Shown in pieces: positions 1,479 to 20,000 of a DNA stretch of 20,000 bases; the stretch's first letter is position 1; each line of letters starts with the position of its first letter. This DNA is from an uncultured virus (IMG/VR IMGVR_UViG_3300040807_003058) (taxonomy: Duplodnaviria; Heunggongvirae; Uroviricota; Caudoviricetes): the IMG/VR virus record IMGVR_UViG_3300040807_003058; one strand, written 5' to 3'. The notes under the pieces were generated by a model that ran no database searches, had not been told where the DNA came from, and saw nothing but the letters and a program-made list of their open reading frames with translations. The position numbers were made by a program, and so were the translations under genes.

Positions 1479-3692
1479 ATGGACAACCCCTTCCTGACAC
1501 GGCGTACCCGACCGAAGACTTCTGGCACCCGTGCGCACGTCGGCGAGACTGCATCGTCGTGGGCACAGCGCTGCTACGCGGAGCTGGTGCGTCAGCAGCC
1601 GTGGGTAGCCAAGTACTCAGTCAGGAAGTCGATCTACGCAGAGGACCAGTCGGCCGGCTATGCGGTGGGGTACTTCCACATCGGGCCGAAGGTCATCCCG
1701 GCGCACGTAGCGGACATCAACGACGTCAACGTCATCACCGTCCCGATCATCATCGAGGACTTCAAGGCGTACCCGTTCGACGTCTTCTACTTCAACGGGT
1801 CGTTGTTCCCTCTTCGGGAGACCCGGGCTACGTCGATCCTCGATCTACCGGACATCTTCGATCAGCCGGTTGAGCGGAACCTGTCGGAGCTTCTCCGTCG
1901 AAACTACTACAACTCCGGTCGCCGTGGCGGTTCGGAGTACGGACTGCTTCAGGGCGTGAAGTACTCCTCGGTGAAGGACTCGACGCTGCGTGTAGCGACG
2001 GACTGCATCAAGCAGGCGAACGCCGCCGTAGAGGGCCTCCGCAAGGTGTCCAACGCCGTACTGGCAGACAACGAAGAAGGTCTGCAGAGTCTGCGGGATG
2101 CCGACCCGCTGTTCGCCGCGATGCTCGAAGACCAGCTGCATGGGCTGCAGAAGAGATCGTCGGACGACGCGGAAGAGGCGGATGAGCTACAGCTCGTAGC
2201 AGAGCACCTCGAGCAGTCCGCGGCGGTGTACGCCCTAGAGTTCAGGAAGACCTCCAGCTCTTTGGATGTGCGCCCCCACTGGGCATCGTCCCCGACAGCC
2301 GGAGCACGAGAGCCAGGTGAGTGGGAGCCCACCAGCCTATGGGAAGTCCAGAAGGTAAGCCAGGTACTGGCAGATCAGGTACTGGCTGACGGTGCCGCGA
2401 TCTACGCCGTTGCTGAGGGGAGCTCGGCGTTCCCCGAGGCGGTACGTGCGCACGCAGAGCGTGATGTACACCTACAGGACCACGCTGCAGAGGCCCAGGC
2501 ACAGTCTGACGAGCTATTCCGGAAGCTGTCGATGACGGTCGAAGGGGCCTCCGTCCGTAAGGTGGAGTTCGTGAACAAGGCCGGCATCCCCGGGCTGCCA
2601 GACGACGGCAGCGCCTGGCTGATCTACAACTGCACGGGTACGAAGTCGTACGACCTCGCTGGACTCCTGCTGGAGAGTGGCGAGGCCCTGCTCCTCGGAG
2701 AGGGGTACTACCCCGGAGACCTGGCGAGGGCCATGGCGCTGGTTCCGTCAGACGAGAAGTCCGCTGCACCGAAGGTCACGTCTGCGAAGTGGGCGACGCG
2801 TGGGGGCCTTGCGCCTGCTCGAGCTGCTATGTGGGCCACCGAGGACGTTGTGCGGGTACTACCGCTCAGCGGAGACGACATCACCATCAACGGCGAGAAG
2901 GCCTACGGGGTCGGAGAGTCGTGCTACCGATGGCAGATGGCGATCCCGGCGGACATCAAGCGGGCGATGACCGACGTAGCGGACTCGGCGAACGTGTACA
3001 TCCCCCGCGATGCTGATGTCGTCGACGTATCCGCTGTAGAGGCCATCCGCATCCCGTACGAGGATGTGGGATCCGTGCAGATGTCGAAGAGCTCCTCGGC
3101 ATTGCCCGACACGCTGCGGCATGTGTCCGATCTCGGGTGGAGTGTGGCCGGCCAGCCGTGGACGGACAAGACCTCCGCCGTACTGGAGCTGGTGTATCGA
3201 GGGTCGGACGTACCATCGGCCGAGCAGCTGTGCGACGCTGCAGAGGAAGACGGCCTCGTCCGTATCCCCGGCGACGTCAGCAAGTGGTCGTCTGTGGCTG
3301 CGGCCGAGGCCGTGGCCGAGGTGATGGAGCGCTATGCCGATGTTCAGCGCGTGGCTGACGACGTCGTCAGCGGCGTAGACACTTCGAGCATGGCGGAGGC
3401 GGCGATGACGATGTACGAGAGCCTTCCGCCGTCGGCGAAGCAGTCGTCGGTGCTCCGAGAGAGCGTGAACAGCGTACTGTCGCTGGGGTTCCTCAATCGC
3501 AGGACGCTCATGAAGTTCGTGAAGCAGGTCGATAATCTGGAGGAGATGCAGTCCGCTCTGTGCGGGCTACTACTGGCCTCTCGTCTCGGCCTGAAGGAGA
3601 TCCCGCAGGAGGCGGCAGAGGCGGCCATTGACGCAATGGAGCCCATCCTGACCGGCCTCAAGAGCGTGGAGCACAGTCTCAGGGTGATGTGA
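1479..3692 (+). CDS. 737-aa hypothetical protein, probable head/virion protein carrying many K-x-S/A motifs
   Basis: Long ORF with strong GC3 codon bias and a TGATG overlap with the next gene. It has globular-looking N-terminal (GYAVG..VPIIIEDFKAYPFDVF) and helical C-terminal (VLSLGFLN..LCGLLLASRLGL) regions. By hand count, 17 of 29 Lys are in K-x-[S/A]. Confidence 0.7.
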   Translation: MDNPFLTRRTRPKTSGTRAHVGETASSWAQRCYAELVRQQPWVAKYSVRKSIYAEDQSAGYAVGYFHIGPKVIPAHVADINDVNVITVPIIIEDFKAYPFDVFYFNGSLFPLRETRATSILDLPDIFDQPVERNLSELLRRNYYNSGRRGGSEYGLLQGVKYSSVKDSTLRVATDCIKQANAAVEGLRKVSNAVLADNEEGLQSLRDADPLFAAMLEDQLHGLQKRSSDDAEEADELQLVAEHLEQSAAVYALEFRKTSSSLDVRPHWASSPTAGAREPGEWEPTSLWEVQKVSQVLADQVLADGAAIYAVAEGSSAFPEAVRAHAERDVHLQDHAAEAQAQSDELFRKLSMTVEGASVRKVEFVNKAGIPGLPDDGSAWLIYNCTGTKSYDLAGLLLESGEALLLGEGYYPGDLARAMALVPSDEKSAAPKVTSAKWATRGGLAPARAAMWATEDVVRVLPLSGDDITINGEKAYGVGESCYRWQMAIPADIKRAMTDVADSANVYIPRDADVVDVSAVEAIRIPYEDVGSVQMSKSSSALPDTLRHVSDLGWSVAGQPWTDKTSAVLELVYRGSDVPSAEQLCDAAEEDGLVRIPGDVSKWSSVAAAEAVAEVMERYADVQRVADDVVSGVDTSSMAEAAMTMYESLPPSAKQSSVLRESVNSVLSLGFLNRRTLMKFVKQVDNLEEMQSALCGLLLASRLGLKEIPQEAAEAAIDAMEPILTGLKSVEHSLRVM

Positions 3693-4813
3693 TGGCTAGC
3701 AGGGGGCAGAAGTTTCCGTTCGAGCGCTACGCTCGCTTGAGGTACTTCCACGGGCGGGGGGTAGACGACATCGTGCAGGAGGTAACCTCCGGCCTGGGGC
3801 TGTACTCCGGGCCTTTGCGCGATCTCGATGGGCACTACCGAAGTGCACTCCCTGGTACTCCGCGCAGGATTGCGCTGGTGTCGGGCGCGACGTCGAAGCC
3901 GGCGCTGAACCGGATTGACGTGCTGGTAATGGGTGACGCGGCAGCGGCCGGGATGGACGCGGCGGAGTACGTCGACCACTTCGGGCTGGGCGCATACGAC
4001 CCCAGCACGAAGTCCGGGGAGAACAAGATCAGCATGGCGGTGCTGCTCTGGCGGAACGTAGAGGCTCGCCGGCTTATCTGTGGGCTGCTGCTGACGGATG
4101 CCACGACCAAGGAGATTCGGGAGGCGGTGAAGAAGTTCCTGCCGGGTAAGACCCCGGGCTCCCTGCGTACGTCGGACATCACCGCGTTCCGGGAGCTGTT
4201 CTGGGACTTCACCGGATGGTCCCCCGGGGCGGTGCTGAACTACCTGAAGATGGTCCCCGGGGCCCTGCCGGCCACCTCCGCCCTACGACACGGGCGTGAG
4301 GGCCTGCTGTTCCGCCTTGGCCTGGCGAAGACCGGCATCGAGTCGATGGAGATGTACTCCCGCATTCGGGACATCGCGTTCCTTCAGCTGGACACGCTGC
4401 GTACGTCTCCCGAGAAGTTCTCGCCCGCTGAGTTCTCCTCCGCCTTTGCCGTATTCAAGGCGGCCGACGCCGAGGTGCGGAACCTGGCGGAGGCGCTGGA
4501 CGAGGACTTCGGGGCGGAAGTGCAGCGTATCAAGATGCAGGAGATCAAGGACTTCGAGAACCTCGACGACGTGCTGTATCAGGCACACATCCACAGTGAT
4601 CGTGGACTGGTGCAGGAAGCCGTGGCTCGGGGGATCATCACCAACGAGGAGGGAGATGATCTCCTCGTCCAGGTAGACAACGGCATGTTGCTGGAAGAAG
4701 ATGAACGCGTACGTCTGCGCATCGAAGTCTACGGCTCCGTCAGTTCAGCTGAAGAAGGCGAAGACACGCCAGACGCCACCGCACTGAACACCGAGCTACG
4801 GAAAGCACAGTAG
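3692..4813 (+). CDS. 373-aa hypothetical protein, possible terminase small subunit / DNA-binding helical protein
   Basis: The ATG overlaps the upstream TGA (TGATG). GC3-biased, helical, with an acidic C-terminus. The TerS suggestion rests only on position upstream of TerL and is weak. Confidence 0.55.
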   Translation: MASRGQKFPFERYARLRYFHGRGVDDIVQEVTSGLGLYSGPLRDLDGHYRSALPGTPRRIALVSGATSKPALNRIDVLVMGDAAAAGMDAAEYVDHFGLGAYDPSTKSGENKISMAVLLWRNVEARRLICGLLLTDATTKEIREAVKKFLPGKTPGSLRTSDITAFRELFWDFTGWSPGAVLNYLKMVPGALPATSALRHGREGLLFRLGLAKTGIESMEMYSRIRDIAFLQLDTLRTSPEKFSPAEFSSAFAVFKAADAEVRNLAEALDEDFGAEVQRIKMQEIKDFENLDDVLYQAHIHSDRGLVQEAVARGIITNEEGDDLLVQVDNGMLLEEDERVRLRIEVYGSVSSAEEGEDTPDATALNTELRKAQ

Positions 4814-4839: not shown

Positions 4840-5253
4840 ATGAGCATCGCAAAGGTATCACTCTCCCGTCGGGCACGACTCCTCCTCGGGGCCCTCGGGG
4901 CCGGAGGAGCCACTGCAGGTACATATGGTGCAGCACAGGCAGGGGCCCTCGGCGAAGCAGCACAAGGTGTTGCAGGCGAGGTTCCAAGGGTCCTGGCGGA
5001 CTACGCCGCCATGATGGGGATGGGCGGTGCGGTGGGCAAGGGCGGCGGAGGCCCCCTCGGGAAGGGGATCCCAGAGAGTTGGGTTCCGGACTGGGCCACT
5101 GACGTAAATGCCGCCAAGGGCTTGGCTGCCGACATCCGAGGGGCCAGGGTCGACGGCGCGTATGACCGAGGGTACAACAAGTACAAGGAGATCACAGCGC
5201 CACGTATTCCTAGCGGTATCCCGAGTGGACTTCTGCACCAGCCGGTGGGCTGA
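4840..5253 (+). CDS. 137-aa Gly/Ala-rich small protein with KVS-LSRR-hydrophobic leader
   Basis: GAGGA RBS at 4831-4835 precedes ATG 4840. N-terminus is MSIAKVSLSRRARLLLGALGAGG. TGATG overlap with the next gene. Confidence 0.7.
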   Translation: MSIAKVSLSRRARLLLGALGAGGATAGTYGAAQAGALGEAAQGVAGEVPRVLADYAAMMGMGGAVGKGGGGPLGKGIPESWVPDWATDVNAAKGLAADIRGARVDGAYDRGYNKYKEITAPRIPSGIPSGLLHQPVG

Positions 5254-5645
5254 TGCTGTACAAGGTGGCCATATCCCGCAGGGGTCGTAACGGCCTGCTG
5301 CTAGCTGGAGCCGCTGCTGCCAGCGCAGCGGCTGCTTGGCCAGCACTGCAAGGGCACCTAACTGGTCTACGGGGAGAATTACCCACTCTGGTTCCCCTGA
5401 GGTACGTGGGAGAATCCCGGTCCTCTGGGGCCAGGGATAACGCATACAACCTACGCCACTCCTTGGATGCTGACCCCAGGAGAAGAGGTCTCGGCGGCCC
5501 CGGGTACTCCACCATGGGGTGGGACGCGTGGAGGGAGGGTGTTGGCTACCTGGAAGGACGTCTAGCCCAGGCAGACATGGAAAATGTCCGCGGCGGGGCG
5601 TACCAAGACCCTCTATTCGACCTGACCCCCGGTGGCCGGAGGTGA
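5253..5645 (+). CDS. 130-aa small protein with KVA-ISRR-hydrophobic leader
   Basis: The ATG overlaps the upstream TGA. N-terminus is MLYKVAISRRGRNGLLLAGAAAASAAAAWP. Confidence 0.7.
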   Translation: MLYKVAISRRGRNGLLLAGAAAASAAAAWPALQGHLTGLRGELPTLVPLRYVGESRSSGARDNAYNLRHSLDADPRRRGLGGPGYSTMGWDAWREGVGYLEGRLAQADMENVRGGAYQDPLFDLTPGGRR

Positions 5646-5647
5646 CC

Positions 5648-6013
5648 GTGCAGCGCCTTAGTAAAGTATCCATGTCCCGGCGTCTACGCCGCATGCTGGC
5701 AGTGGGCGGCGTTGGGGGTGCGGGGGTTGCTGCGGCCTACTCCTCTGCCCTACCAGGTGGTCTACAGGAGGCGATGCACAACGCAGCGGGGTCCGCTGGG
5801 TTCGCGGTGGCGCCGCCAGGGTACACAGGTATGCGCAGCTTCGATGGGGAGAACCGTCGGGCCATAATAGAAACCGTAAACGCCAACCCAGAGAGGTGGC
5901 TGGACACCCCCGCAAAGAGACGCAGGTGGGAGCAGTCAGGTAACGCTGGACCGGTAACCGCCGCCCGCGCCCGTGCGCAGCAGCTGCAGTCCGTGCCATC
6001 CTGGTTCCTGTAG
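5648..6013 (+). CDS. 121-aa small protein with KVS-MSRR-hydrophobic leader
   Basis: GGAGG at 5638-5642 then GTG 5648 (the ORF track's 5519 start is overextended). N-terminus is MQRLSKVSMSRRLRRMLAVGGVGGAGVAAAY. Confidence 0.7.
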   Translation: MQRLSKVSMSRRLRRMLAVGGVGGAGVAAAYSSALPGGLQEAMHNAAGSAGFAVAPPGYTGMRSFDGENRRAIIETVNANPERWLDTPAKRRRWEQSGNAGPVTAARARAQQLQSVPSWFL

Positions 6014-6016
6014 CAC

Positions 6017-6044
6017 TTGCCTTCTCACAGAGCTCCGGTATCCT
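6017..6044 (+). promoter_or_regulatory. putative host sigma70-type promoter
   Basis: TTGCCT (6017-6022), a 16-nt spacer, then TATCCT (6039-6044), in the 60-bp intergenic gap upstream of the AGGAGG RBS of the 6074 gene. Confidence 0.5.
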
Positions 6045-6073
6045 GCCGACGCATCTCAGCGTAGGAGGTCAGG

Positions 6074-6658
6074 ATGCCGGAGTCTCTGTTCGTAAACACC
6101 AGCGGCAAGCAGCTGGATCAGGTCCATGCCGCAGCCACCCTGTTCGAGTCCTTCCGCAAGGACTTCGAGGATCTCGGACAGAACCACAACGGTCGGGTCA
6201 TCCAGGCGGACGACAAGGACCTGTACGTCATCGACCTGCCGAACTGCACGGCATCCGTCTGGATGGAGCAGAACAAGGACATCATGGTCCACATCTGCCC
6301 GCCGGGGATTCGGGCTGCCTTCGCCCCCATGAGCGAACGAGGTCCCCAGGAGTTCCATGAGGAGCTCCGCCGCATCGGCAACCAGCTCGGCCTGCTGGTG
6401 GGACGGGTGACGCAGGAGCAGAAGGTCTGCAAGGCCTTGCTGGAGTTCTACAGCCACTACCAGCAGGATGCTCTGCTGGCCGCCAATCCCCGGTACAAGA
6501 TGCGGGCGATTGCCCACGACTACGACCGTAAGGGCATGGATCTCTTCCAGATCCGCCTCGTCAGGCTGTACAGTCGCGGGGGGTGGGATGACCGAGTGAA
6601 GGACCTCGTCATCACCTTCGACCGGCTCATCGGAAAGCAGATACCGGACCTGGAATGA
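6074..6658 (+). CDS. 194-aa hypothetical protein
   Basis: Strong AGGAGGT RBS, GC3-biased codons and normal globular composition. No motif recognised. Confidence 0.8.
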   Translation: MPESLFVNTSGKQLDQVHAAATLFESFRKDFEDLGQNHNGRVIQADDKDLYVIDLPNCTASVWMEQNKDIMVHICPPGIRAAFAPMSERGPQEFHEELRRIGNQLGLLVGRVTQEQKVCKALLEFYSHYQQDALLAANPRYKMRAIAHDYDRKGMDLFQIRLVRLYSRGGWDDRVKDLVITFDRLIGKQIPDLE

Positions 6659-6825
6659 GCTCGACATCCATGAAGAAGGTTCCTGCGGGAGCTGCCCTTG
6701 AGCAGCACCTGAATAAGCGCCGAACGGTCGAGAAGCGTCTATGGCGCCCGCACGACATCGCCGCTCGCCGTAGGGCCCGGAAGCTAAAAGAAGCCGCCGT
6801 GGTGGCGGCCTCAAGCTCGAGCTAG
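6655..6825 (+). CDS. 56-aa basic hypothetical protein (not in ORF track)
   Basis: ATGA overlap with the upstream stop. Sequence MSSTSMKKVPAGAALEQHLNKRRTVEKRLWRPHDIAARRRARKLKEAAVVAASSSS. Its TAG shares CTAG (6822-6825) with the convergent gene's stop. Confidence 0.5.
   Translation: MSSTSMKKVPAGAALEQHLNKRRTVEKRLWRPHDIAARRRARKLKEAAVVAASSSS
6786..6811 (-). terminator. putative intrinsic terminator for the 6822-7427 gene
   Basis: The minus strand reads GCCGCC-ACCAC-GGCGGC followed by TTCTTTT, just downstream of the minus-strand stop at 6822. Confidence 0.55.
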
Positions 6826-7427
6826 ACGAACACGGAGTTGTCCCGGAGAAAAGCTCCGTGCTCTCCGCGATCTCCGTTCTCGACGATATCGATGATCACG
6901 TCGTACATCGTTTTCTGGCCCAAGGGGCAGGCCGCACAGGACGACAGCCCAACGCAGCCGTACGCGGCGTTGAGCTCGGACGTCAGTGCCGGCAGGGTGT
7001 CCGACTCCTCGAACGTGCGGATGGCGGTGATGAGCTGCTGCCCCTTACTGCATGGCGTAGCGAGTGGGCGCGTAGGGCCCTCCTTGGAGAAGGTCTCCAC
7101 CACCGTCCGTAGGTGCGTGTCCAACGCATCTACAGGGATGAGCTGCCGGAAGGACTCCATGAACAGCTCCTGCCCTACGTTGCAGGACAGGCAGGTGCCA
7201 CGTGCCACGCAGTCGTTACCTCGCTGGATTCGGGCGAGCTCCGCCCAGTCCTCGTCGGGCAGGTCAGACAGTAGCTGTAGTATCTCCTCTCGAGAGGAAC
7301 AGTTCTCGATGCCGATGACTCCCTCCAGGAACGAAGTGACGGACTTACCGACGCCGCAGCCCGGAATGAACCTCCGGACGGGCCCATCGTCTGCTGCGAG
7401 TTCGATTAGCTGCTTGATCTCCCACAT
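6822..7427 (-). CDS. 201-aa protein with duplicated Cys cluster (C...CVx4Cx2Cx2GQ), putative Fe-S or Zn binding
   Basis: GAGGAGG RBS upstream of the ATG at 7427 (MWEIKQ...). Two repeats: GPVRRFIPGC..CVARGTCLSCNVGQ and GPTRPLATPC..CVGLSSCAACPLGQ. Confidence 0.75.
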   Translation of the reverse strand: MWEIKQLIELAADDGPVRRFIPGCGVGKSVTSFLEGVIGIENCSSREEILQLLSDLPDEDWAELARIQRGNDCVARGTCLSCNVGQELFMESFRQLIPVDALDTHLRTVVETFSKEGPTRPLATPCSKGQQLITAIRTFEESDTLPALTSELNAAYGCVGLSSCAACPLGQKTMYDVIIDIVENGDRGEHGAFLRDNSVFV

Positions 7428-7461
7428 TGCGTATTCCCTCCTCTGGTCGTATGCTGGGCGG

Positions 7462-7483
7462 GTGCTCCGTAGCCTTATGTACC
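7462..7483 (-). promoter_or_regulatory. 22-bp motif copy 1 (minus strand GGTACATAAGGCTACGGAGCAC), putative phage promoter/operator
   Basis: 17/22 identical to 11143-11164. Both copies lie 34 nt upstream of the ATG of a minus-strand gene. Confidence 0.6.
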
Positions 7484-7497
7484 GGTAAATACAGAAA

Positions 7498-10400
7498 ATG
7501 CTGAAGACGTCGGACATCCCCAGCACGGAACAGGACACCAAGCTCTATGACTCTCTGCGGGCGGCAGAGGTACAGGAGCTGGCGATGATTCAGGCGGAGT
7601 CCTGGCAGGTGGAGGACGGCACACCGACGGGTATGTCGGAGCAGCAGACGCTATCGCAGTTCGTTCCCTACCGGTTCCGGTTCGACCAGGGGCGCGACAA
7701 CGTCATCACGTTCAAGACCCGGCCGTGGTTGCCAGCCATCTACGACAGCGAGTACACGCTGCACCGACAGGAAGACGGAGGAAACCGGGGATACCGCCGG
7801 CGTACGCTGCTCATGGCGTCGCGACAGGTGGAGAAGACCATCCACGAAGATACTCTGGTGCTTCTCGAGAGTGGGGACGCTGTCCGCATCTCCGAGGTGC
7901 ATGTGGGGCAACGTGTCGTGGGGTTGGTGGAGGCGGGGGACTCTGAGCTTCGGCCAGGGGAGATCTCGTGGAAGTCAAAGAGATATGTAAAGCCCTGCGT
8001 CCGCATTCGCACCCGACAGGGGCACGAGGTTGTGGCCGGTCTTGAGCACCCGTTCCGTAGGTACGGGGAGTGGGTACACGCCGAGCGTATTTCGGTAGGG
8101 GACAGGGTTGCGGTGGTCCGTAGGGCCGGCGACTTCGGGACCCTTCCTGTTCCTCTCGAGCGGGTATCGTTCGCAGCGTACATGTTGGGGGACGGGTACT
8201 GCAGCGAGCAGCACGGAATTTCGTTCACCCAGGCGGAGGGTCAGGCGCTAGATGAGTTCAAGAGCATCGCCGCCCGCCGTGGGTGGAGGTATCGGGACGA
8301 GCTGCGAGGCAACGGCACCCACGCCGTACGGCTGAGCCTTGCCGTAGACTCCGAGCCTCTCGGGTGGCTCAGGGAGGATGGCATCCTGAACCAAACGTCC
8401 TTCACCAAGGACGTACCATCATGGGTGTGGGGCCTACCGAAGCAAGGGGCAGCCCTATTCCTAAACCGGCTGTGGGCTACCGACGGCCACGTCTCTCTCC
8501 GGGGGAGCCGCTACAGCATCGAATACTGCTCCGTGTCCGAGAGCCTCATCCGCAGTGTGCAGAGGTTGCTGTGGAAGTTCGGGGTACCCTCACGCATCCG
8601 GGAGAACACCCCGACCCTGTACAAGGGGACGGACAAGGTTGCGTACATCCTACGTGTAGAGACTTCGGATGGGGCGCGCAGGTTCCTGGAAGACATCGGC
8701 GCTCTCGGCAAGTCTGAGGGTATTCCTGTGCCGGAGGGGGGCAGGAGGTCGAACCGTGACGTAACTCCGGAGGGGCTCCGTAACGACGTCGAGGCTCTGT
8801 GCAAAACGGCTTCCTTCCAAGGCGGGAACAAGGCCACCGCTGAATTCTACTCCCCCTACGAGGTCGGGCTCGCACGGACCCCTGCGTACAGGCTGACTTG
8901 GGAGAAGTACGGCAGGTACGTCGACTACTTCAAAGACAATGAGGGGCTGTACGACCCGGCTCAGGTAGAGAAGCTCAGCGCCCACATAAACTCGGACGTC
9001 TTCTGGGACGAGGTGGTGGAGGTGACACCAGTTGGTGACCATCCCTGTTACGACATCACCGTGGAGGACGTGCACTCCTTCGTGGGTAACGGGTTCGTGA
9101 CACACAACTCTACCTCCCTCGGCAACAAGATCATCGGGTACGCCTCGCTGATCCCCAACATGACCTGCCTGTACGTCACCTCGGCCGACCTGAACCTGGC
9201 GGAGTTCTCTGACGAGCGTATCGACAACGTCATCCGCCTCAGCCCTTACCTGAAGCCGTACATCGGTAATTTGAAGGCGTTCAACACCTACCTGAAGCGC
9301 TTCGGCAAGAACAACAGCAAGGTCGTCCTACGGTCTGCCAACCTCACGGCCGATCGTAGCCGTGGTATCGCTGCGGACCTAGTCAGCTTCGACGAGATTC
9401 AGGACCTCGCGATGGGTAACATCGACGTCATTCGTGCTACGACCAACAACTCCCCGCTGGAGTACGGTCCGATGACGCTGATGTCCGGAACGCCGAAGAC
9501 GTTCGACAACCCCATCGAGCGCATCTGGTCGAAGAACTCCACGCAGAACAAATGGTTGATGCGGTGCGGCCACTGCCGCCACGAGAACCCCCCTCACCCA
9601 GAGCAGATCGGGCCTCGAGGGCTCATCTGCGCGAAGTGCGGGTACCCGCTGAACCCGTTCGAGGGCCGCTGGGTACGGCATGGCTCGGCCGACGCGGCCT
9701 ATGAAGGGTATCACCTGTCCCGTGCGCTGATGGCGTACACGTGGATCGGCAACCCCGACATGTTCACCACGAAGTGGAACGACCTCCTGCGGGACATCAA
9801 CGACCCCAACTCCACGGAGGGGTCGGTCAAGAACGAGATCTTCGGCCTGTCGCACGACGACGGAGCCAAGCCCATCACAGAACGGCAGGTGCGCGCGCTC
9901 AGTCACGACGGACTGACGATGTCCAGGATCATGCCGGATACCGTCAGGAACGACCCACACTACCCGAAGTTCATGGGCATCGACTGGGCGGAAGGTAACA
10001 GCGGCGCGTACACCGTGGTGACGCTGGGGTTCATGAACGACGACAAGTTCCAGGTGACCTACATGCACCGGTACATGGGTCGTGAGGCAGCGTCGGACTA
10101 CGTCAAGCGAGACCTACTGGAGCTGTTCCACGACAACAACATCCACGTCGCCTTCTGCGATGCCGGCGGCGCCTGGGGCATGATCGACTACCTGTGGGAC
10201 AACATCGACGACGGCCGAAAGAGGGTGCTACCGGTGCAGTACGCCCCGAGTCAGTCGATGCCGATTGCGTTCGACACGAAGTCCATGAAGATCACGATCC
10301 ACCGTACTCGGTGGATGGCGAAGCTGTTCAACCTGATGAAGCGCAGGAAGTTCATCTTCCCCAGATGGGAGGAGTTCGGGGGAACCCCCTCGCCCAACGG

Positions 10401-10566
10401 TGGGTTCTCGCAGGACATTCTGACGATCTTCTCGGAGTTCACGCCCCGAACGGGTAAGAAAACGTACAACCACACCGAGGCGGATGACGCTTTCCACTCC
10501 CTACTCTACGCGAACCTCGCGAAGATGTGGGTGTACGAGGAGCTGCACGAGATGTCCCACACCTAG
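7498..10566 (+). CDS. terL: terminase large subunit (lambda GpA-like) containing an intein
   Basis: After intein removal: Walker A SRQVEK|ST, Walker B DLVSFDEIQD, coupling motif MSGTPKT, Zn ribbon CGHC..CAKC, and RNase H-like nuclease motifs FMGIDWAEG, FCDAG, DDAFHSLLY. An alternative start exists at ATG 7585 with an AGGAG RBS. Confidence 0.92.
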   Translation: MLKTSDIPSTEQDTKLYDSLRAAEVQELAMIQAESWQVEDGTPTGMSEQQTLSQFVPYRFRFDQGRDNVITFKTRPWLPAIYDSEYTLHRQEDGGNRGYRRRTLLMASRQVEKTIHEDTLVLLESGDAVRISEVHVGQRVVGLVEAGDSELRPGEISWKSKRYVKPCVRIRTRQGHEVVAGLEHPFRRYGEWVHAERISVGDRVAVVRRAGDFGTLPVPLERVSFAAYMLGDGYCSEQHGISFTQAEGQALDEFKSIAARRGWRYRDELRGNGTHAVRLSLAVDSEPLGWLREDGILNQTSFTKDVPSWVWGLPKQGAALFLNRLWATDGHVSLRGSRYSIEYCSVSESLIRSVQRLLWKFGVPSRIRENTPTLYKGTDKVAYILRVETSDGARRFLEDIGALGKSEGIPVPEGGRRSNRDVTPEGLRNDVEALCKTASFQGGNKATAEFYSPYEVGLARTPAYRLTWEKYGRYVDYFKDNEGLYDPAQVEKLSAHINSDVFWDEVVEVTPVGDHPCYDITVEDVHSFVGNGFVTHNSTSLGNKIIGYASLIPNMTCLYVTSADLNLAEFSDERIDNVIRLSPYLKPYIGNLKAFNTYLKRFGKNNSKVVLRSANLTADRSRGIAADLVSFDEIQDLAMGNIDVIRATTNNSPLEYGPMTLMSGTPKTFDNPIERIWSKNSTQNKWLMRCGHCRHENPPHPEQIGPRGLICAKCGYPLNPFEGRWVRHGSADAAYEGYHLSRALMAYTWIGNPDMFTTKWNDLLRDINDPNSTEGSVKNEIFGLSHDDGAKPITERQVRALSHDGLTMSRIMPDTVRNDPHYPKFMGIDWAEGNSGAYTVVTLGFMNDDKFQVTYMHRYMGREAASDYVKRDLLELFHDNNIHVAFCDAGGAWGMIDYLWDNIDDGRKRVLPVQYAPSQSMPIAFDTKSMKITIHRTRWMAKLFNLMKRRKFIFPRWEEFGGTPSPNGGFSQDILTIFSEFTPRTGKKTYNHTEADDAFHSLLYANLAKMWVYEELHEMSHT
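7837..9108 (+). mobile_element. 424-aa intein with LAGLIDADG homing endonuclease, inserted in terminase Walker A
   Basis: Block A TIHEDTLVLLESG; block B VVAGLEHPF; LAGLIDADG blocks YMLGDGY and FLNRLWATDGHV; block H SLIRSVQRLLWKFGV; block F CYDITVEDVHSF; block G NGFVTHN/S. Codon usage is visibly less GC3-biased than the exteins. Confidence 0.93.
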
Positions 10567-11165: not shown

Positions 11166-12062
11166 CTACTTCCGTTTTTTCGCGGAAAGGATTCGACGGA
11201 CTCGTCTGTCGGTGTCGGTGTATCCGACGGGCAGGTAGTTCACGGTGCGTGGCCGGCTCTTATCCATGGAGGCGCAGACGAATGCGATTGAATCCAGACT
11301 GCGGCTGGCGTTTCTGGCAGCCCGTAGCCGCTTGTTGGCTGATGTGCCGTTGGTGTAGGCGCCAGGCACGTCGGCGGATGTGGCCTCTGCGGCCCGTGCA
11401 GCCAACGCCAGGAACACGTACGTCGGTACGTCCCGCTTCCAGCCGAAGGGTTTGACGTCGAGGTCCATGCACGACCTCATCGTCTCCGCATCTACCGACG
11501 GAGCTACCCGCAGAAAGGCGTCAGCAGCCTCGAGGTCCCCCGGACGGTCGACTACGTCCTCCGCCAACTTCATCAACGACCGTGCTTCGGAGTTGCTGAG
11601 CCGCCCGATTCGACGACGAAGGCTGAGATTCTCCGCCAGGAACGCCACCTGCTGCTCGAGGTCCGCCAGCCGTGCAGCAGAGTCTAGCGCGAAGTCGGTA
11701 GGGGCAGCGGCTTCCGGTTCCGAGAGCTCCTGGTACTCCGGAGGGGCCATGTCGAACATGTCTCCCGCCTTGTGCAGCGCCTCGGTGATGGCAAATCCGT
11801 CGGAGTCGGTACCTTCCAGGTACGGCAAGCGTGGGGGAGGATTGCCATGCCGGCCGTACTCTACAGCTCGTTCCACATCCCCCCGGAAAACCATGATGCG
11901 GTTCCCGTTCTTCTTAGCCCGCACCCGAGCCTTGGTCACCCACAGCCTGATGGTCTCTCGGTTCTTGCCGATGAGATAGGCCGCTTCCTTCAGCGAGACC
12001 CACGCAGGGAATCCTCTGATTTCCTCGATGCTCTTGCTTTGCATATCACCCTGTCGTCTCAT
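11166..12062 (-). CDS. DNA-binding protein with N-terminal excisionase/MerR-like (HTH_17-type) winged helix-turn-helix
   Basis: WVSLKEAAYLIGKNRETIRLWVTKARVRAKKNGNRIMVFRGDVE, followed by a short coiled coil (RLADLEQQVAFL) and a helical domain. Alternative start at 12044. Confidence 0.8.
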   Translation of the reverse strand: MRRQGDMQSKSIEEIRGFPAWVSLKEAAYLIGKNRETIRLWVTKARVRAKKNGNRIMVFRGDVERAVEYGRHGNPPPRLPYLEGTDSDGFAITEALHKAGDMFDMAPPEYQELSEPEAAAPTDFALDSAARLADLEQQVAFLAENLSLRRRIGRLSNSEARSLMKLAEDVVDRPGDLEAADAFLRVAPSVDAETMRSCMDLDVKPFGWKRDVPTYVFLALAARAAEATSADVPGAYTNGTSANKRLRAARNASRSLDSIAFVCASMDKSRPRTVNYLPVGYTDTDRRVRRILSAKKRK

Positions 12063-12103: not shown

Positions 12104-12994
12104 ATGCAGGAGATCGCAGAGCTGGCCTCCAAGGCCGTGGAGAAGGTGTCTTCCGGAGAGTTCTCCGGTATCTCTGACGCCGTGGCGGACATGGCCTCCT
12201 CGCAGGCGTGGCCCTTCGAGAAGGTAGCCCGTGTGTGCCAGGCTGCCAACAACGCTCTTCTGCGAGAGAAGAAGTCGGGGTCCCAGCCGTTCTGGTCGAT
12301 CCGGTTCGAGACTGCAAAGCCCGGTAGCCTAGCGGAAACCGCGCGTAGTACTGTAATGAAGAAGGTGTCTACCGCTGCCTTCTCCAAGGTGTCCTCCGCG
12401 AGCGAAGGAAGGAACATGACGTTGTCGCTATCCACGCCACCGAAGTACGAGTCCGAGCCTGAAGGGCATGGGATCGAATTCTACTTCCCCCAGCCGGCGG
12501 CGGAGAAGACCTCGTCCTCCGCGGAAGAAGCCTCGGCCGATCTACGGGACGCGGTGGCGGACGCGCAGGATCTACTGCGTCATGCGCAGTCGGAGCTACC
12601 GGCAGCGGAGTTCATGCGCGAGCAGAGCGCCGCCACACTGCAGATCCACCTACAGCGGGTGGGCGAGAAAACCTCGTCCTACGTAGCGCTGTCTGCGCTG
12701 GTACAGGCCGCGGATGAGTTCTCCGGTAAGTGGCCGGATGCGCGGTCGTACGCCGAGGCAGCAGTTGCGCAGTACGTCGAGGCCAACGACATCCAGCCCG
12801 ACGCGGTGTTGTTGGGGGCCGAGAAGATCTCGGCAGCTGGGGGTACCCGGTCGGTGTTGGACATGCAGAGCCCGATGGTTCGCGCCAGCCTGACGTACTT
12901 CAAGTCCTGCGACCGGCATGACTCGCTGAACACGCTATGCGCCGACCTGCGTGCCCAGATCGGGAGTGCTCAGGCCGAGTCGATGGAGGGGTGA
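12104..12994 (+). CDS. 296-aa hypothetical head-morphogenesis protein rich in K-x-S/A motifs
   Basis: AGGAG RBS; first gene of the head operon. Contains EKVSS, EKVAR, KKVST, SKVSS, EKTSS (twice) and EKISA. Confidence 0.75.
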   Translation: MQEIAELASKAVEKVSSGEFSGISDAVADMASSQAWPFEKVARVCQAANNALLREKKSGSQPFWSIRFETAKPGSLAETARSTVMKKVSTAAFSKVSSASEGRNMTLSLSTPPKYESEPEGHGIEFYFPQPAAEKTSSSAEEASADLRDAVADAQDLLRHAQSELPAAEFMREQSAATLQIHLQRVGEKTSSYVALSALVQAADEFSGKWPDARSYAEAAVAQYVEANDIQPDAVLLGAEKISAAGGTRSVLDMQSPMVRASLTYFKSCDRHDSLNTLCADLRAQIGSAQAESMEG

Positions 12995-14094
12995 TGGACC
13001 CCACGAAGCGAGAGAAGTACGTCCCGGAGGACGTCACCACGTCGATGAACGTCGGCCTCGCTGGGCAGGGTCTGCTCGCAGCCGGCCTGTTCGCCCGAGG
13101 TCTACCGTGGCTCGTGCCTTCGGCAGCTGCGCCGATCATGGCAGACAAGCTCAACCCCAAGTCCATCAAGCAGCAGGCGAAGATGGACTCGAACTACCTA
13201 CGATACTCCCGAGCGAGGGATTCCATGGAACGGCCGTACTCCTTCAAGCAGTCGGACACCCGGAACGCGGAGGAGACCGTACGTGTACTCCAGAAGCTGA
13301 CGGAGCTGATGAACAGCAACTACGTCGCTTCCGTACCTGGCGGGGAGAAGACCTCGTCCGGCGTGCAGAAGATCTCCTCTCCGCTGGAGAAGGCGAGCGT
13401 GCGGCTCAACCCCGCGCAGATTCAGCAGGCCCTGGCGATCGAGGAGGCGAACAAGGCCCTCCGCTCCCAGAAGGGTGGAGGTGCCGTGGCCGATGCGCTG
13501 AAGTACAGGCCGCAGTGGCTTGGCGGCCCGTCGACCACCGAACGCACGATGATGCGTGCCGGGGACTTCCTGAAGGGCCTCCTTGGCCGCGAGGAGATCG
13601 TGACCAACCAGTTCGGCAACGTCATCGGCTCTAACCGCCGGTTCCTTGGCGGGCCGCTGGGCATGGCGGTGAAGCTGCCGGCGGCGCTGCTCGCGCTTCA
13701 CGGACTGAACAAGGCGTTCGTCGCTCGAGAGAAGTCGAAGCAGCAGGGCCGTGAGGGCAAGAACTTCAAGGCGGCCTTCGGCGTCGTGACCAACAACGAC
13801 ATGTTCCTCAACTCCGATGCGGGCCGGGCCTACCAGGACTACCCCGAGGAGTTTACCCGGGCTGCGCAGGAAGGGTTCCACATCCTCAACAAGTACGCCC
13901 CGAGTGTGGCCGCCGATCCGAAGCTGGCTGCGGAGTACCTCAGCCGTCTCGCGCGAGACGTGCACATGGAAGCCACCGGCGAGGAGTACCTCAATACCGT
14001 CCAGGATGCCCTCAAGCTCGAGGAGCAGATGCAGCGGGTTGAACCAGACCTCATCCGCAGCGCAGGCACCCTGGCCGGCCGAGTCATCGACTAA
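12994..14094 (+). CDS. 366-aa hypothetical virion/head protein with two hydrophobic segments
   Basis: The ATG overlaps the upstream TGA, with GGAGG RBS (the track's 12937 start is overextended). Contains a cluster EKTSS/QKISS/EKASV and a C-terminal NKYAPSVAADPKLAAEYL. Confidence 0.75.
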   Translation: MDPTKREKYVPEDVTTSMNVGLAGQGLLAAGLFARGLPWLVPSAAAPIMADKLNPKSIKQQAKMDSNYLRYSRARDSMERPYSFKQSDTRNAEETVRVLQKLTELMNSNYVASVPGGEKTSSGVQKISSPLEKASVRLNPAQIQQALAIEEANKALRSQKGGGAVADALKYRPQWLGGPSTTERTMMRAGDFLKGLLGREEIVTNQFGNVIGSNRRFLGGPLGMAVKLPAALLALHGLNKAFVAREKSKQQGREGKNFKAAFGVVTNNDMFLNSDAGRAYQDYPEEFTRAAQEGFHILNKYAPSVAADPKLAAEYLSRLARDVHMEATGEEYLNTVQDALKLEEQMQRVEPDLIRSAGTLAGRVID

Positions 14095-14096
14095 CC

Positions 14097-15776
14097 ATGT
14101 ACAAGTACATCAAGACATCACACTCCACCGCACACGGTGTACGTACTCCAGAGACCGACGGGGCAACCGTCGGTCTGGAGAAGATGTCTGCCGACCGAGA
14201 GTCCCAGCTTCAGCAGCTGCTGGAGCAGGGCGGGGTCGACCCACGGATTATCGAGCACATCCGCGAGGCCGACCTGGACATGGACAAGAACACCTACGTG
14301 CTGGTGGTGCCTCTGGGTGCCTCTGAGTCGTGGGGACCGACGGTCAACGGTGACTCTTTCGAGCGGCGGTACCTCAAGCCCAGCAGGGACGACTGGGGCC
14401 ACAAGACGTTCGAGCTGTTCTCCCGCGCATACACCCACCACGCGAATAAGGACCGCGACAAGGGCTTCGGGTGCATCCCGAAGGCCGTCTACAACGACGG
14501 CATGGACAGGGTAGAAGCTCTGTGGGAGCTGTGGGACGACAAGGCCCGTGAAGTAGGAGCAGGGTTCGTCATCGACAAGCTGAAGGACGGCAAGAACGTC
14601 GATATCAGCATGGGCGCCCGAGTTCCGTTCGATGTGTGTAGCATCTGCCATAACAAGGCGAAGTCCCCCGCAGAGTACTGCGAGCACGTACGTACTCCCG
14701 GGTTCGGGTTCATCTACCCCGACACGTACAAGCAGGTGATGGTCCACAACCCGGACCCCCTGTTCCACGACCTCTCGGCTGTAATCATCCCCGCTGCGCC
14801 CGAGGCGTTGGTGGGCGGCAGGGTAGACCCGGTGCTGTTGGCTCTGATGCGTATGGTCAAGTCCGCCGGAGAAGCCAACGCCAAGTTGGTGATGTCCGCC
14901 GCTGCGATGGGCGAGGCGATGTACGGCTCCGACGAGGGGGGAGTGTTCAAGGCCGCCTCCGTCGGTAAGTCAGCGGCTGTGCTGAAGCTCAGCGACATCA
15001 TCAAGCACGCCCCGGTGCTGAGCTCTACGGTCATTGAGCCGACGCAGCGTACGGAGAAGGTCTTCTCTCCCGATGATCTGAGGAAGATGGGCAGCGGGTA
15101 CGGGCAACTCCCTGGATTCCTGTCCACCCTCGGGGCGCTGGGCATCGTCCTACGTCCCCGTGAATTCTCGACGGCTGTCGGACATTCCGGGGGCTGTGAC
15201 TTCTCGTCTGTGCGGATGGACCCCCGTAAAGTCAAGCAGGGCTTTGACTCCCCGGCAGAGGGGGACCTGGTACACCCCGGCGGGGTAGACCCGATGATCC
15301 TGGCTCTGGCCAAGAGCGGGCTGGGGGAACGGAGTGTGTTCCTGCCGCACCTGGCGAACCGGGTGAAGTCCACCGTCATCGACGGCAGCCGGGCTGAGGC
15401 GAAGGATCCGTACGGTCCCAGCTCGACGGGTGAGCTCACCGACAACATCTCCATGCTGTACGGCACATACATCCGGCAGCTGGCGACGAGGTTGTCCAGC
15501 ATCCTCGAGCATGTGTTCACCACATACCCGAACCTACAGCTCGAGTTGCTTGGGGATGCAGACCCCGCAGTACGGGCGCTAGTGGCCCTGGGAGGACCCG
15601 CCCCGTCGGAGACGGAGAAGGTGGCCAACCTCGCTGCGCAGGTGGTTCTACCCCCGGCTTACATCCTGTCAATGGCTGGACAAGCAGCCGACGAGCGTGC
15701 ATTGCTTGAGGCGACGAACTCCATGGGAGGATCGCCGAGCACGGCCTACTTCCTCGGCGGCACAACACGGAGCTGA
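14097..15776 (+). CDS. putative prohead (capsid maturation) serine protease with Cys/His metal-binding insert
   Basis: Motifs NGDSF, YTHHANKD (candidate catalytic His), DISMGARV (candidate catalytic Ser), CSIC..YCEH and FHDLSAVIIPA match the order expected for HK97/assemblin-fold prohead proteases. It lies upstream of scaffold-like and capsid genes. Confidence 0.72.
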   Translation: MYKYIKTSHSTAHGVRTPETDGATVGLEKMSADRESQLQQLLEQGGVDPRIIEHIREADLDMDKNTYVLVVPLGASESWGPTVNGDSFERRYLKPSRDDWGHKTFELFSRAYTHHANKDRDKGFGCIPKAVYNDGMDRVEALWELWDDKAREVGAGFVIDKLKDGKNVDISMGARVPFDVCSICHNKAKSPAEYCEHVRTPGFGFIYPDTYKQVMVHNPDPLFHDLSAVIIPAAPEALVGGRVDPVLLALMRMVKSAGEANAKLVMSAAAMGEAMYGSDEGGVFKAASVGKSAAVLKLSDIIKHAPVLSSTVIEPTQRTEKVFSPDDLRKMGSGYGQLPGFLSTLGALGIVLRPREFSTAVGHSGGCDFSSVRMDPRKVKQGFDSPAEGDLVHPGGVDPMILALAKSGLGERSVFLPHLANRVKSTVIDGSRAEAKDPYGPSSTGELTDNISMLYGTYIRQLATRLSSILEHVFTTYPNLQLELLGDADPAVRALVALGGPAPSETEKVANLAAQVVLPPAYILSMAGQAADERALLEATNSMGGSPSTAYFLGGTTRS

Positions 15777-15777
15777 G

Positions 15778-16116
15778 ATGCCGACACTTCAGGAAATCGT
15801 AAAGCGTTCCAAGAGCGCGGTATCCCCCGAGGGGATGGACAAGACCTCCGGGTCAGAACTCACTCGGGAGAAGGTCTCCGCCGCCATCGGAGAAGCCTAC
15901 GACCGTGGAGCCTCCGACGAGCGTGAGCGTGCGGATTCAACTCGAGCTCGTCTTGCCCACTTCGAGGGGCAGGTCATGGCTCATGCGCTGGCGGCGAAGC
16001 TGATGCATGCCAAGGTCAGCATGGCGAACAACAAGTGCTGGGACTGTGGGACACGTGCCTATGACCCAGAAGATTCTCATCGTCGGTGCGCTGTGTGCGC
16101 CGCCAACCACCAGTAA
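15778..16116 (+). CDS. 112-aa protein with C-terminal Zn ribbon (CWDC..CAVC)
   Basis: ATG 1 nt after the protease stop (the track's 15697 start is overextended). Contains DKTSG, EKVSA and AKVSM motifs. Confidence 0.7.
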   Translation: MPTLQEIVKRSKSAVSPEGMDKTSGSELTREKVSAAIGEAYDRGASDERERADSTRARLAHFEGQVMAHALAAKLMHAKVSMANNKCWDCGTRAYDPEDSHRRCAVCAANHQ

Positions 16117-16127
16117 CAGGTGACATC

Positions 16128-17708
16128 ATGACAACGATCCAGGACCGTCTGGCTGAGGCGCTGAACAAGGTACAGGCGCAGAGGCGAGCTCTCTCGGAAG
16201 AGACCAAGGTCGAGAAGGCGTCGTCGGCGAAGACCGAAGACATCAACATCGGCATGGTCAAGGTCTCGGCCAAGCGGGCGATCAACGACGCACGTCTTCT
16301 CCGCAGCCTCGGGCACTTCGGTGTGGAGAAGGTTGCGATGGAAGAGCAGGACATCTTCGAACACACCCTCCACTCGAGTGGTGCGGGCACCATCGAGTCG
16401 CCGGCTGACATCAGCTCGGCGACGGAAGTCACGCAACCCGCCCCGGGCGGCGAGAACGAGCTGAAAATCGTCGAGCACAAGAAGGTGGACGCCGTCACCG
16501 GCCCTGGTCTCGACCAGGGCAACATGGAGACGCTCCGCAGTGCCCCGCTCACCGAAGGCGGCCAAGGTCCACTGCAGACGATGGATCTCGGTGATGCGTC
16601 CCCCGGGGACCACAACCAGGATGATGTCCTCTCGCAGCCGAAGACCTCGCAGGCCAAGCTCGAGGCGATCCTCAACGGTGCAGAGTACCTCGGTACCGCC
16701 GAAGAGGCTCAGGCCATCCGCACGGCTACGGGTATCGACTCGGCCGACGCTGCGGTGGAGTTCTTCAAGCGTTCGGCAGCCCACTGGGGCATGACGAACG
16801 CGGAGTTCCTCAACCTGGTTGAAATCGGCTCGGCTGAGAAGACGCAGCTTCTGGAAAAGGTGGCGATGATGGTCGAAGGCTCGACCATGGACGACATCTC
16901 CGTGGCGAAGGACGTTACCGAGCAGATCGTGAAGGCCAAGCAGGAGCTCCCCACGGGCTCGGAAGTGGCTGAGATCGCCAACGTCGGTCCGAAGGCGGCC
17001 AACGTCGCCATCAAGCAGGTGGCTGACCTCGTCGCTGCCGTGAACGGTACGGTGATGGCCCCGGGCCAGGCCGCTGCTGCTGCGATGGACCCGATGGCGA
17101 TGGGCGCTGCTCCGCCTCCGATGGGCGCTGCCCCGGGCGGTGAGATGGCTCCGCCCCCGCCGGTCCCGTCCCCCGAGCCGATGCCGGCCGCCCCGGCACC
17201 CCCGCCGGCCGCCCCGGCCGCAGCTGCTCCCGCCCCGGCCGCAGCTGCTCCCGCCCCCCCGCCGGAAGAGGGTATGGAAGTAGCCGCTTCGGCGAAGCTG
17301 ACGACCAAGTCGGCGCTGGAAGACTTCCTGAAGTCCTCGGCTGATGCGGACCTCACCAGCCTCGAGGAGCCGCTCAACGGCACACCCGGACCGGGTGAGG
17401 AGACGCAGGAAGCCGGTGACGGCATCGACGCTCCCATCGTCTCGGCCCGTACGGACGAGCTGACGGAGACCGATAGCACGACCGCCACCACGCAGGCCAT
17501 CCTCGACTCGGATGATGACTCGCTCGACACCGCCGCAGAAGAAGTGGCCGAAGCCGGTGACAACTCGGCTGCCAGCTACTCTGCACGCGGCAACGACGAT
17601 GTCGTCGACGGAGAGGGGGCTGACGTGAAGAGCGAGGGAGTCGAGGCCGACGCTGAGAAGCGCTCGAACGCTACGCAGGAACTACTCGCAACCCTGTTCT
17701 CCCGCTAA
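16128..17708 (+). CDS. 526-aa acidic, low-complexity scaffold/core-like head protein
   Basis: AGGTGA RBS then ATG 16128 (MTTIQDRL). Asp/Glu/Ala-rich with a Pro/Ala linker and many K-x-S/A motifs. It sits between the protease and capsid genes. Confidence 0.65.
   Translation: MTTIQDRLAEALNKVQAQRRALSEETKVEKASSAKTEDINIGMVKVSAKRAINDARLLRSLGHFGVEKVAMEEQDIFEHTLHSSGAGTIESPADISSATEVTQPAPGGENELKIVEHKKVDAVTGPGLDQGNMETLRSAPLTEGGQGPLQTMDLGDASPGDHNQDDVLSQPKTSQAKLEAILNGAEYLGTAEEAQAIRTATGIDSADAAVEFFKRSAAHWGMTNAEFLNLVEIGSAEKTQLLEKVAMMVEGSTMDDISVAKDVTEQIVKAKQELPTGSEVAEIANVGPKAANVAIKQVADLVAAVNGTVMAPGQAAAAAMDPMAMGAAPPPMGAAPGGEMAPPPPVPSPEPMPAAPAPPPAAPAAAAPAPAAAAPAPPPEEGMEVAASAKLTTKSALEDFLKSSADADLTSLEEPLNGTPGPGEETQEAGDGIDAPIVSARTDELTETDSTTATTQAILDSDDDSLDTAAEEVAEAGDNSAASYSARGNDDVVDGEGADVKSEGVEADAEKRSNATQELLATLFSR
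17211..17257 (+). repeat. 21-bp perfect tandem repeat (about 2.2 copies) encoding APAAAAP
   Basis: GCCCCGGCCGCAGCTGCTCCC at 17211-17231 and 17232-17252, then GCCCC. Confidence 0.85.
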
Positions 17709-18915: not shown

Positions 18916-20000
18916 ATGAGTAACTTCGCAGAAATGCTGCAGGGCGTGCCGGAAGGGTCCCCCGAGTTCGAGAAGATCTCGAAGCAGATCAACAAGGCGT
19001 GGTTCAACGACGCCAAGACCTCGGCTGGCCGTGACAAGCTCTCGGGCCTGCACGAGAGCCAGTTCGCTTCGTATCTTCGCGAGCACTCGGCGATGGCGAA
19101 GATCCTCGTCCCGCAGGACATCGATCCTTCGGAGTGCGAGGTCGGCGTCGACACCGACAGCCTCTACGTCCGCCTGCACTTCACGCCGGAGACCAACGCG
19201 TACCTCGGCTCGTTCGGTGCGGGTCCGCCGGAGCGTCGTGAGGTCTTCATCGACCGCATCTTCGCGTCGTTCATGATGCTCACCACGCCGACGTACGTGT
19301 TCAACGAGTACCGCATGATGGCGTACCCGTTCCCCGTGCCGAAGCAGGTCGAGGACTCGATCGGCATGGACATGCACGAAGCGCGTGACTTCATCGAGTT
19401 CCGCTCGCTGGAGGAGACCATCCAGGCCGGTGCGGCGACGTACAACAACGTCCTCAAGGGCGAGAACGTCGCGACCCCCCTCACCGGTGCCACCGACCGC
19501 GTGGACTTCCACCAGGACGACCTCGTCCGGATGATGAAGTACTTCGCCGGCAAGCGCGACCGCATGGAGAAGGTCCTCATCCCCGAGACGGACTTCCTCA
19601 CCATCCTCACGTTCGACGCGTCGATCTTCGGTGACACGCTTCGCGGCGAGGTCGTGACGAACGGCTACAAGCTCTCGCAGTGGATGGGCATGGAGCTCAT
19701 CCGTACGATCAAGATCGACAACGACAACGGTGATGTCTTCCGCGAAGGCAACATCTACGGCTTCGCCGACCCGGAGAAGATCGGTCGTTCGTACAACCTG
19801 CAGGGCCTCAAGATGAACCTGGAGCGCAAGCGCCAGTTCCTCGAGATGGACGCGCGCATGGCGTGCGGCCACATCTGGGCCGTCGGCAAGCGTGTCTGCA
19901 AGCTCGAGCTGTACGACACCGGCCTCACCCCGACCGGCGGTGCGATCCCCGGCGTAACGACCGGCGACTCGGACCTCTTCTGGGACGACGTCGAGCTCGT
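18916..20000 (+). CDS. major capsid protein (HK97-fold), 3'-truncated by window edge; not in ORF track
   Basis: AGGAGA RBS at 18905-18910, ATG 18916, open to the window end: MSNFAEMLQG..YLREHSAMAKILVPQ..MDMHEARDFIEF..ELIRTIKID..GNIYGFADPEKIG... It has the most extreme C/G-ending codon bias in the window and the canonical position after protease/scaffold/decoration genes. Confidence 0.82.
   Translation, partial: MSNFAEMLQGVPEGSPEFEKISKQINKAWFNDAKTSAGRDKLSGLHESQFASYLREHSAMAKILVPQDIDPSECEVGVDTDSLYVRLHFTPETNAYLGSFGAGPPERREVFIDRIFASFMMLTTPTYVFNEYRMMAYPFPVPKQVEDSIGMDMHEARDFIEFRSLEETIQAGAATYNNVLKGENVATPLTGATDRVDFHQDDLVRMMKYFAGKRDRMEKVLIPETDFLTILTFDASIFGDTLRGEVVTNGYKLSQWMGMELIRTIKIDNDNGDVFREGNIYGFADPEKIGRSYNLQGLKMNLERKRQFLEMDARMACGHIWAVGKRVCKLELYDTGLTPTGGAIPGVTTGDSDLFWDDVEL

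Follow-up and report, generated by a model that had tools for sequence, protein, structure and literature searches.

Three Small Coupled Genes in a Phage Head Module Probably Encode Internal Head Proteins with a Shared Lys-x-Ser/Ala Tag

Three small genes that lie in tandem in an uncultured virus of the Caudoviricetes (IMG/VR record IMGVR_UViG_3300040807_003058), designated here ORFs A, B, and C, probably encode optional internal head proteins that are trimmed by the prohead protease at a K-V-S/A site, with an arginine patch and a Gly/Ala helix that would serve in packing and, probably, in binding the host membrane following ejection. The 20,000-nucleotide stretch of DNA that was analyzed (the window) is a phage head module, and the KV[S/A] of A, B, and C is one case of a module-wide K-x-S/A motif that is concentrated in head proteins. 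Their short tag is the same as that of the head-building proteins, which makes it probable that they travel inside the particle as trimmed cargo. Cleavage, the position of the cut, packaging, ejection, and membrane association are steps that we infer.

The Cassette and Its Shared Leader

The three genes (Table 1) are tightly coupled, as originally predicted: A and B overlap by 1 nt, only 2 nt separate B from C, and Shine-Dalgarno-like sequences precede both A (GAGGA) and C. Public gene calls include the same lengths for all three and, for A, also a longer (146 aa) and a shorter (80 aa) form. Neither a sigma-70 promoter nor a plus-strand terminator was found around the cassette. The predicted bias toward A/T-ending codons is likewise borne out, with a GC3 of 0.66 in the cassette relative to 0.81 in 12 other window genes and 0.78 expected from amino-acid content.

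The window sequence occurs in estuary sequencing runs. The three genes are represented in contigs from two metatranscriptomes of estuary origin (stretches left uncovered are uninformative); these contigs are not counted as expression because DNA carry-over is possible. Two DNA runs, which may be the source of the window itself, show no differences from it, and no deletion or allele of the cassette was seen in the sequencing runs examined. Clusters of C-to-T changes on the plus strand, near contig ends at 3132-3157, 5888-5921, 6014-6047, and 8055-8064, are present in both RNA runs and absent in two DNA runs; being confined to low-depth single contigs, they are probably a library or deamination artefact.

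Table 1. Coordinates of the cassette, its component parts, and the head genes discussed in the text.
Feature	Position	Strand	Remarks
Left flank gene	3689..4813	+	374 aa; G001 homologue (29%) directly abuts the right-flank homologue
ORF A	4840..5253	+	137 aa, net charge +4; MSIA-KVS-LSRRAR, Gly/Ala helix, unique body
Shared motif of A, KVSLSRRAR	4852..4878	+	K-x-S is a putative prohead-protease site
Gly/Ala-rich uncharged segment of A	4879..4935	+	Best 19-residue Kyte-Doolittle mean 1.1
ORF B	5253..5645	+	130 aa, net charge +5; MLY-KVA-ISRRGR, Ala-rich helix, unique body; TGATG coupling to A
Shared motif of B, KVAISRRGR	5262..5288	+	
Ala-rich uncharged segment of B	5292..5348	+	Best 19-residue Kyte-Doolittle mean 1.53
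ORF C	5648..6013	+	GTG start, GGAGGT upstream; 121 aa, net charge +9; MQRLS-KVS-MSRRLR, Gly/Ala helix, unique body
Shared motif of C, KVSMSRRLR	5663..5689	+	
Gly/Ala-rich uncharged segment of C	5696..5752	+	Best 19-residue Kyte-Doolittle mean 1.37
Right flank gene	6074..6658	+	194 aa; 0/10 Lys in K-x-S/A; weak (23%, E 4e-4) positional homologue in G001
Putative prohead (capsid maturation) protease, assemblin/T4 gp21 fold	14097..15776	+	AF2 model, VIA matches; candidate enzyme for K-x-S/A sites
Probable scaffold/core protein	16086..17708	+	From position and composition only; 11/25 Lys in K-x-S/A
Major capsid protein, runs off window end	18916..20000	+	N-terminal KIS/KTS/KLS; K41-x-S43 invariant

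The common KV[S/A]-[LIM]-SRR-x-R leader of the three tandem genes is real, with ORFs and N-termini as first described. Across all six reading frames, the window has exactly three matches to KV[SA][LIM]SRR, none of them more than six codons from a start. In the nine shared leader residues, the amino acids have been conserved despite divergence at synonymous positions, a sign of selection at the peptide level.

The bodies had been described as unrelated. This holds in that they are mostly unalignable beyond the Gly/Ala helix, where none of the three pairs scores above shuffled sequences (404-1142 of 2000). It holds less well for A and C. Downstream of the motif, these two keep a single register (global alignment, 10 of 2000 shuffles; local alignment, 107 of 2000). 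They also have in common an in-frame match of 12 of 13 nt, encoding PESW and PERW, that lies at a similar offset in each (8 of 1000 codon shuffles) and was noticed post hoc. Given this register and match, the two are possibly paralogs of great age, and a tandem duplication long ago, followed by rapid divergence of the bodies, is plausible.

Homologue searches returned very little. PHROGs, Pfam, and NCBIfam scans of A, B, and C gave nothing apart from sub-threshold composition matches to Jun and microcin B17; a search of 5.8 billion clusters, with 8,000 candidates scored, recovered only the three themselves; a search of 1.84 billion representatives yielded none beyond the three and two evidently unrelated repeat proteins; and the ESM Atlas offered 0.81-level leads only, for A. 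The suggested scan of relatives with a leader profile yielded no further members: a leader HMM run against 7,065 related-locus ORFs found nothing below E 0.17. Likewise, a relaxed leader pattern had no match in 942,375 residues of related-locus ORFs, and a degenerate DNA pattern of the leader had none in IMG/VR.

A Lys-x-Ser/Ala Motif across the Head Proteins

The head module includes a putative prohead protease, modeled by AF2 with a pLDDT of 92.4 for its domain from 25 sequences (a single-sequence fold reached a pLDDT of 34). In VIA, the model matches the varicella-zoster virus (VZV) protease/assemblin (Z 10.9, rmsd 3.1, 117 aligned) and T4 gp21 (Z 10.3, rmsd 3.0, 132 aligned), with unrelated rows at Z 6.0 or less. 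Foldseek gave no match at E<=0.001, its top ranks being herpes proteases and gp21, and a PDB sequence search with the protease gave nothing. One His and one Ser are invariant in 25/25 aligned sequences and would, judging from this conservation, be the catalytic residues. Among cultured phages, the protease is closest to gp222 of Salmonella phage Arash and to proteins of three Vibrio phages (33-35% to Arash/D181). The domain also bears a conserved CxxC...C..H insert, possibly zinc-binding, and a long C-terminal extension rich in K-x-S/A.

The capsid protein has an HK97-fold family match below the curated cut-off, and no relative of it was found in GTDB genomes. Window gene 18201 is a probable decoration protein by position; in related loci (L008, at 1560-3073, and L009), two tandem homologues of it precede the capsid gene. 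Other observations on the module concern its left half. The terminase large subunit (7498-10566) carries a LAGLIDADG intein (approximately residues 122-537), and the terminase of a relative, G001, is without it. On the minus strand, a 298-aa ORF with an N-terminal HTH_17/MerR-like helix-turn-helix (weak matches) lies between the terminase and head genes at 11166-12062, and a Cys-rich 239-aa ORF without a family match lies at 6822-7541, in a position conserved in G001 (E 1.5e-8).

The short motif is abundant here. K-x-S takes in 54 of the 282 lysines in all 20 window ORFs, relative to 21.1 expected (p 2e-10), and 45/161 lysines in eight head-type genes versus 7/112 in nine others, a division of the genes that was drawn post hoc, after the motif counts had been seen. 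The enrichment is specific to lysine, given that the control R-x-[SA] occurs at 34 of 175 against 35.7 expected. Near the capsid N-terminus, K-x-S (K41/S43) is invariant in 12/12 aligned proteins, one partial match of 13 having been left out of the alignment. The occurrence of a short motif across scaffold-type proteins and at a capsid N-terminus, beside an enzyme of the gp21 fold, is the same pattern as that of the A-X-E motif in SPN3US and of the T4 system. The phage's own prohead protease most likely recognizes and cuts at K-x-S/A, and the logic of protease-processed cargo after the manner of the T4 internal proteins (IPs), put forward in the original prediction, gains support from the concentration of the motif in head proteins alongside this enzyme. 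No paper describing a K-x-S/A motif was found in the literature searched, which takes in few subscription papers, and "glycine zipper" was likewise absent from the papers listed.

The sites of A, B, and C are themselves somewhat atypical. At head sites, the residue after K-x-S/A is S, A, or G in 33 of 66 cases and L, I, or M in only seven; A, B, and C have L/I/M. The commonest residue at -1 is E (19/66), which is absent at the sites of A, B, and C, so that these may be poor substrates, with cleavage possibly inefficient or absent. The stub preceding the lysine is also very short, at 3-5 residues versus 8-13 in most leaders of G001, and this, together with the rarity of L/I/M after the motif, counts against trimming.

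The Cassette and the Motif in Relatives

The single syntenic relative found, G001, is a 99-kb sequence that is 55% complete. Its homologues of the two flank genes overlap by 4 nt with nothing between them, and the cassette is therefore optional at this site. The predicted variability of the cassette is supported by this inference, and rests on one relative that is 55% complete. The same genome carries the motif elsewhere: in two other blocks, by a gene tiling chosen by hand, K-x-S/A occurs no more than 18 residues from the start in 18 of 22 genes versus 0/7 minus-strand control genes. Most of the tagged genes encode small, low-GC3, Gly/Ala-rich proteins; two encode enzymes. One is a fused beta-beta' RNA polymerase whose sequence starts MKVA and whose Arash homologues are gp206/gp216 (E 2e-120, 5e-37); the other is a SNF2-type helicase with gp217 as its homologue (E 9e-101). 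The mReC, or multi-subunit RNAP-encoding Caudovirales (PMC7481178), are marked by a beta/beta' RNA polymerase together with their grouping in marker trees; of these two marks, the polymerase is seen here, in G001. The blocks (28411-35015 and 43331-52887; L019, L020) flank the 2,755-aa polymerase and include the leader-tagged helicase, and the leader of their low-GC3, Gly/Ala-rich genes takes the form M..x(L)RxY..K[LVMI]S.

Cultured relatives provide a view of the virion. Arash gp206, gp216, and gp217 are, according to Table 2 of PMC10585845, among the most detected virion proteins, with 3516, 1210, and 1148 spectra, respectively. Arash gp213, gp221, and gp224 combine K-x-A, a basic patch, and Gly/Ala segments, and are listed in the same table as virion proteins with coverage of 93-100%, in which there is no sign of removed leaders; the table is permissive, with many probable contaminants. 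The available text of that article describes no motif or processing, and the word "protease" occurs in it 0 times. The K-x-A form also extends to the scaffold-position and neighboring head-cluster proteins of Arash and D181. BLAST of the window's 737-aa, 374-aa, 12104, 12994, and scaffold genes gave no link to Arash genes. The gene at 12994-14094, which lies just before the protease and encodes a 366-aa protein with Gly/Ala segments and seven K-x-S/A sites, occupies the same position as Arash gp221, though a BLAST link is absent.

Taken more widely, a profile of the protease found 88 IMG/VR stretches. In 39 of 80 fetched loci, 119 of 1,183 plus-strand ORFs (60-450 aa) have a Gly/Ala segment. 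K-x-[AS] stands ahead of the segment in 108/119 of these versus 7/31 on the minus strand; the 39 loci are mutually related, and K-x-[AS] before a segment is frequent by chance in Lys/Ala-rich proteins. The unit of basic patch plus Gly/Ala segment is found in the middle or last third of the protein in 136 of the 180 segments of this class.

Alternative Readings of the Leader

The alternative that fares best, although it is unlikely, is that A, B, and C are late membrane proteins that never enter the virion, with a Sec signal or signal anchor and a role in lysis timing, superinfection exclusion, or receptor masking, and with KV[S/A] merely inherited from an ancestor gene. The N-terminal order of n-region then h-region, the A-x-A motifs that follow the hydrophobic segment in all three, the residue after the motif that is atypical for head sites, and the ability of common ancestry to account for the shared leader would all suit such proteins. 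The segments are, however, weakly hydrophobic (1.1-1.5), the mid-protein or last-third position of the basic and Gly/Ala unit in most segments of the class does not suit a signal, and Arash proteins of the same architecture are listed in virions (PMC10585845, Table 2).

Another reading, which is improbable, has the three packaged as basic filler of the core or as helpers of assembly, in the manner of T4 IPIII/gp67, with no action on the host at all. Their net charges of +4, +5, and +9 are as expected of such proteins; T4 IPs are reported to be basic, and IPIII mutants to have head assembly defects (PMC9026906). Against this stand the low GC3, the lack of homologues among the 1.84 billion representatives, and the absence from G001, which together suggest a fast turnover that fits host conflict better than a core role.

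The original prediction also held that cleavage would unmask a segment mimicking a twin-arginine (Tat) signal. In its fullest form, the maturation protease would act as a switch, whereby removal of the stub at KVS/KVA exposes a non-canonical S-R-R-x-R as a functional or decoy signal, and the proteins delivered by the virion are directed to the Tat translocase of the host, or block it, early in infection. This is very unlikely to be correct. As in Tat signal peptides, S-R-R is followed by an uncharged stretch of low to moderate hydrophobicity (PMC1182353); the stretch is at least 13 residues long and lies within the first 35 residues, in keeping with a published rule (PMC8047123); S-R-R is kept in A, B, and C despite synonymous change; and variant Tat peptides are reported to exist (PMC1182353). 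In contrast to Tat peptides, x-F-L-K is missing, as the prediction had itself stated, and each of A, B, and C has Arg in place of the Phe. The TatP expression RR.[FGAVML][LITMVF], which reportedly covers 103 of 105 TatP training peptides (PMC1182353), matches 0/3, and the Tat models PF10518 and TIGR01409 (Pfam, NCBIfam) gave no match at E<=10 to full-length or trimmed forms, with HMMER filters that drop most weak matches.

The relatives point the same way. Among 18 tagged G001 genes, none has S/T-R-R after the motif. RR precedes the Gly/Ala segment in 25 of the 180 segments of the class; none of the 22 outside the window has it before residue 61, and several are at C-termini. Four of the 22 match the TatP expression, by position-blind chance. 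In addition, loci of higher GC have a larger share of Arg in the basic patch (Spearman 0.63, 35 loci that are related to each other). The simplest reading is that SRR-x-R is a GC-rich phage's version of the generic basic patch before the helix, present in three neighbors by descent. A small probability is retained for the Tat reading on account of the conserved Ser and the exact spacing within the leader. Among the papers listed in a literature search on phage-encoded twin-arginine signals, none apparently treats this subject, judging from titles and the beginnings of abstracts.

Finally, despite the low GC3 and lack of homologues, decaying or spurious ORFs can hardly explain a motif kept at the protein level with diverged synonymous sites, in coupled ORFs with Shine-Dalgarno-like sites and with two DNA runs (possibly the window's source) identical to the window.

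Comparison with Known Phage Systems

The reading of A, B, and C as trimmed internal head proteins has its clearest precedent in T4, where IPI-III are reported to carry a capsid targeting sequence (CTS) that is cut by the prohead protease gp21 (PMC9026906). In both phages, the prohead protease is of the gp21 fold, and the proteins in question are small, basic, poorly conserved accessory proteins with a common N-terminal tag and unrelated bodies. A gp21/assemblin-fold protease, a tag motif common to head-assembly proteins, and small, basic, variable products are all found here, as in the T4-type CTS-tagged class. The T4 system differs in its Glu-ended site, versus K-x-S/A, and in a CTS of 10-19 residues, versus a stub of 3-5; likewise, the part shared by A, B, and C runs past the putative cut into the Arg patch and Gly/Ala helix. 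There is no sequence relationship to the T4 IPs and no PHROG/Pfam match, and the combination that marks IPI-III proper, namely a 10-19 residue CTS, a Glu cut, and IP homology, is not seen in A, B, or C. By analogy, then, the three would work like the T4 CTS/IP system without being members of it.

A second precedent comes from the SPN3US/phiKZ-like phages, in which ejection proteins are reported to be cut by gp245 at A-X-E and approximately 80% of head proteins to be uncleaved (PMC10052503). As proposed here, a three-residue motif is repeated through head proteins and propeptides of a large myophage with internal cargo, although the motif and lineage are different and the shortest propeptides are 20-24 residues. 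Closer to hand, Arash and D181 have a homologous protease, and Arash also a homologous capsid protein. An architecture comparable to that of A, B, and C, with K-x-A followed by a basic patch and a Gly/Ala segment, is present in Arash gp213/gp221/gp224 and in 0276/0279/0286 of Vibrio phage D181; these phages differ in a motif of K-x-A, versus mostly K-x-S in the window, and in lacking sequence homology to A, B, and C.

Proposed Mechanism and Significance

On the preferred reading, A, B, and C would be accessory proteins inside the head of a large myophage, one that is Arash-like and carries an RNA polymerase, and would be made late together with the head genes. Each would open with a stub of 3-5 residues, then K-V-S/A as the head-protein mark of the lineage, and would co-assemble into the prohead, to be trimmed during maturation by the prohead protease. 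The mature N-terminus would then consist of the Arg patch and, after it, the Gly/Ala helix with its weak hydrophobicity. Many small proteins of the clade have this unit, and patch and helix together would probably drive packing into the core against the DNA. Following ejection, the same unit would probably associate with the host inner membrane, carrying with it the fast-evolving body of 70-90 residues.

The principle of such processing is already known from T4 and SPN3US, and the A/B/C triplet is one small, orphan instance of it. The cultured relatives Arash and D181 make the central claim directly testable. If it is true, then in a widespread large-phage lineage, represented by the 88 IMG/VR stretches, a changing virion cargo is processed by means of a three-residue Lys-x-Ser/Ala code. 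This cargo would range from RNA polymerase to small Gly/Ala-helix proteins, and the motif would allow the contents of the virion to be predicted from sequence and candidates for early-acting proteins to be singled out.
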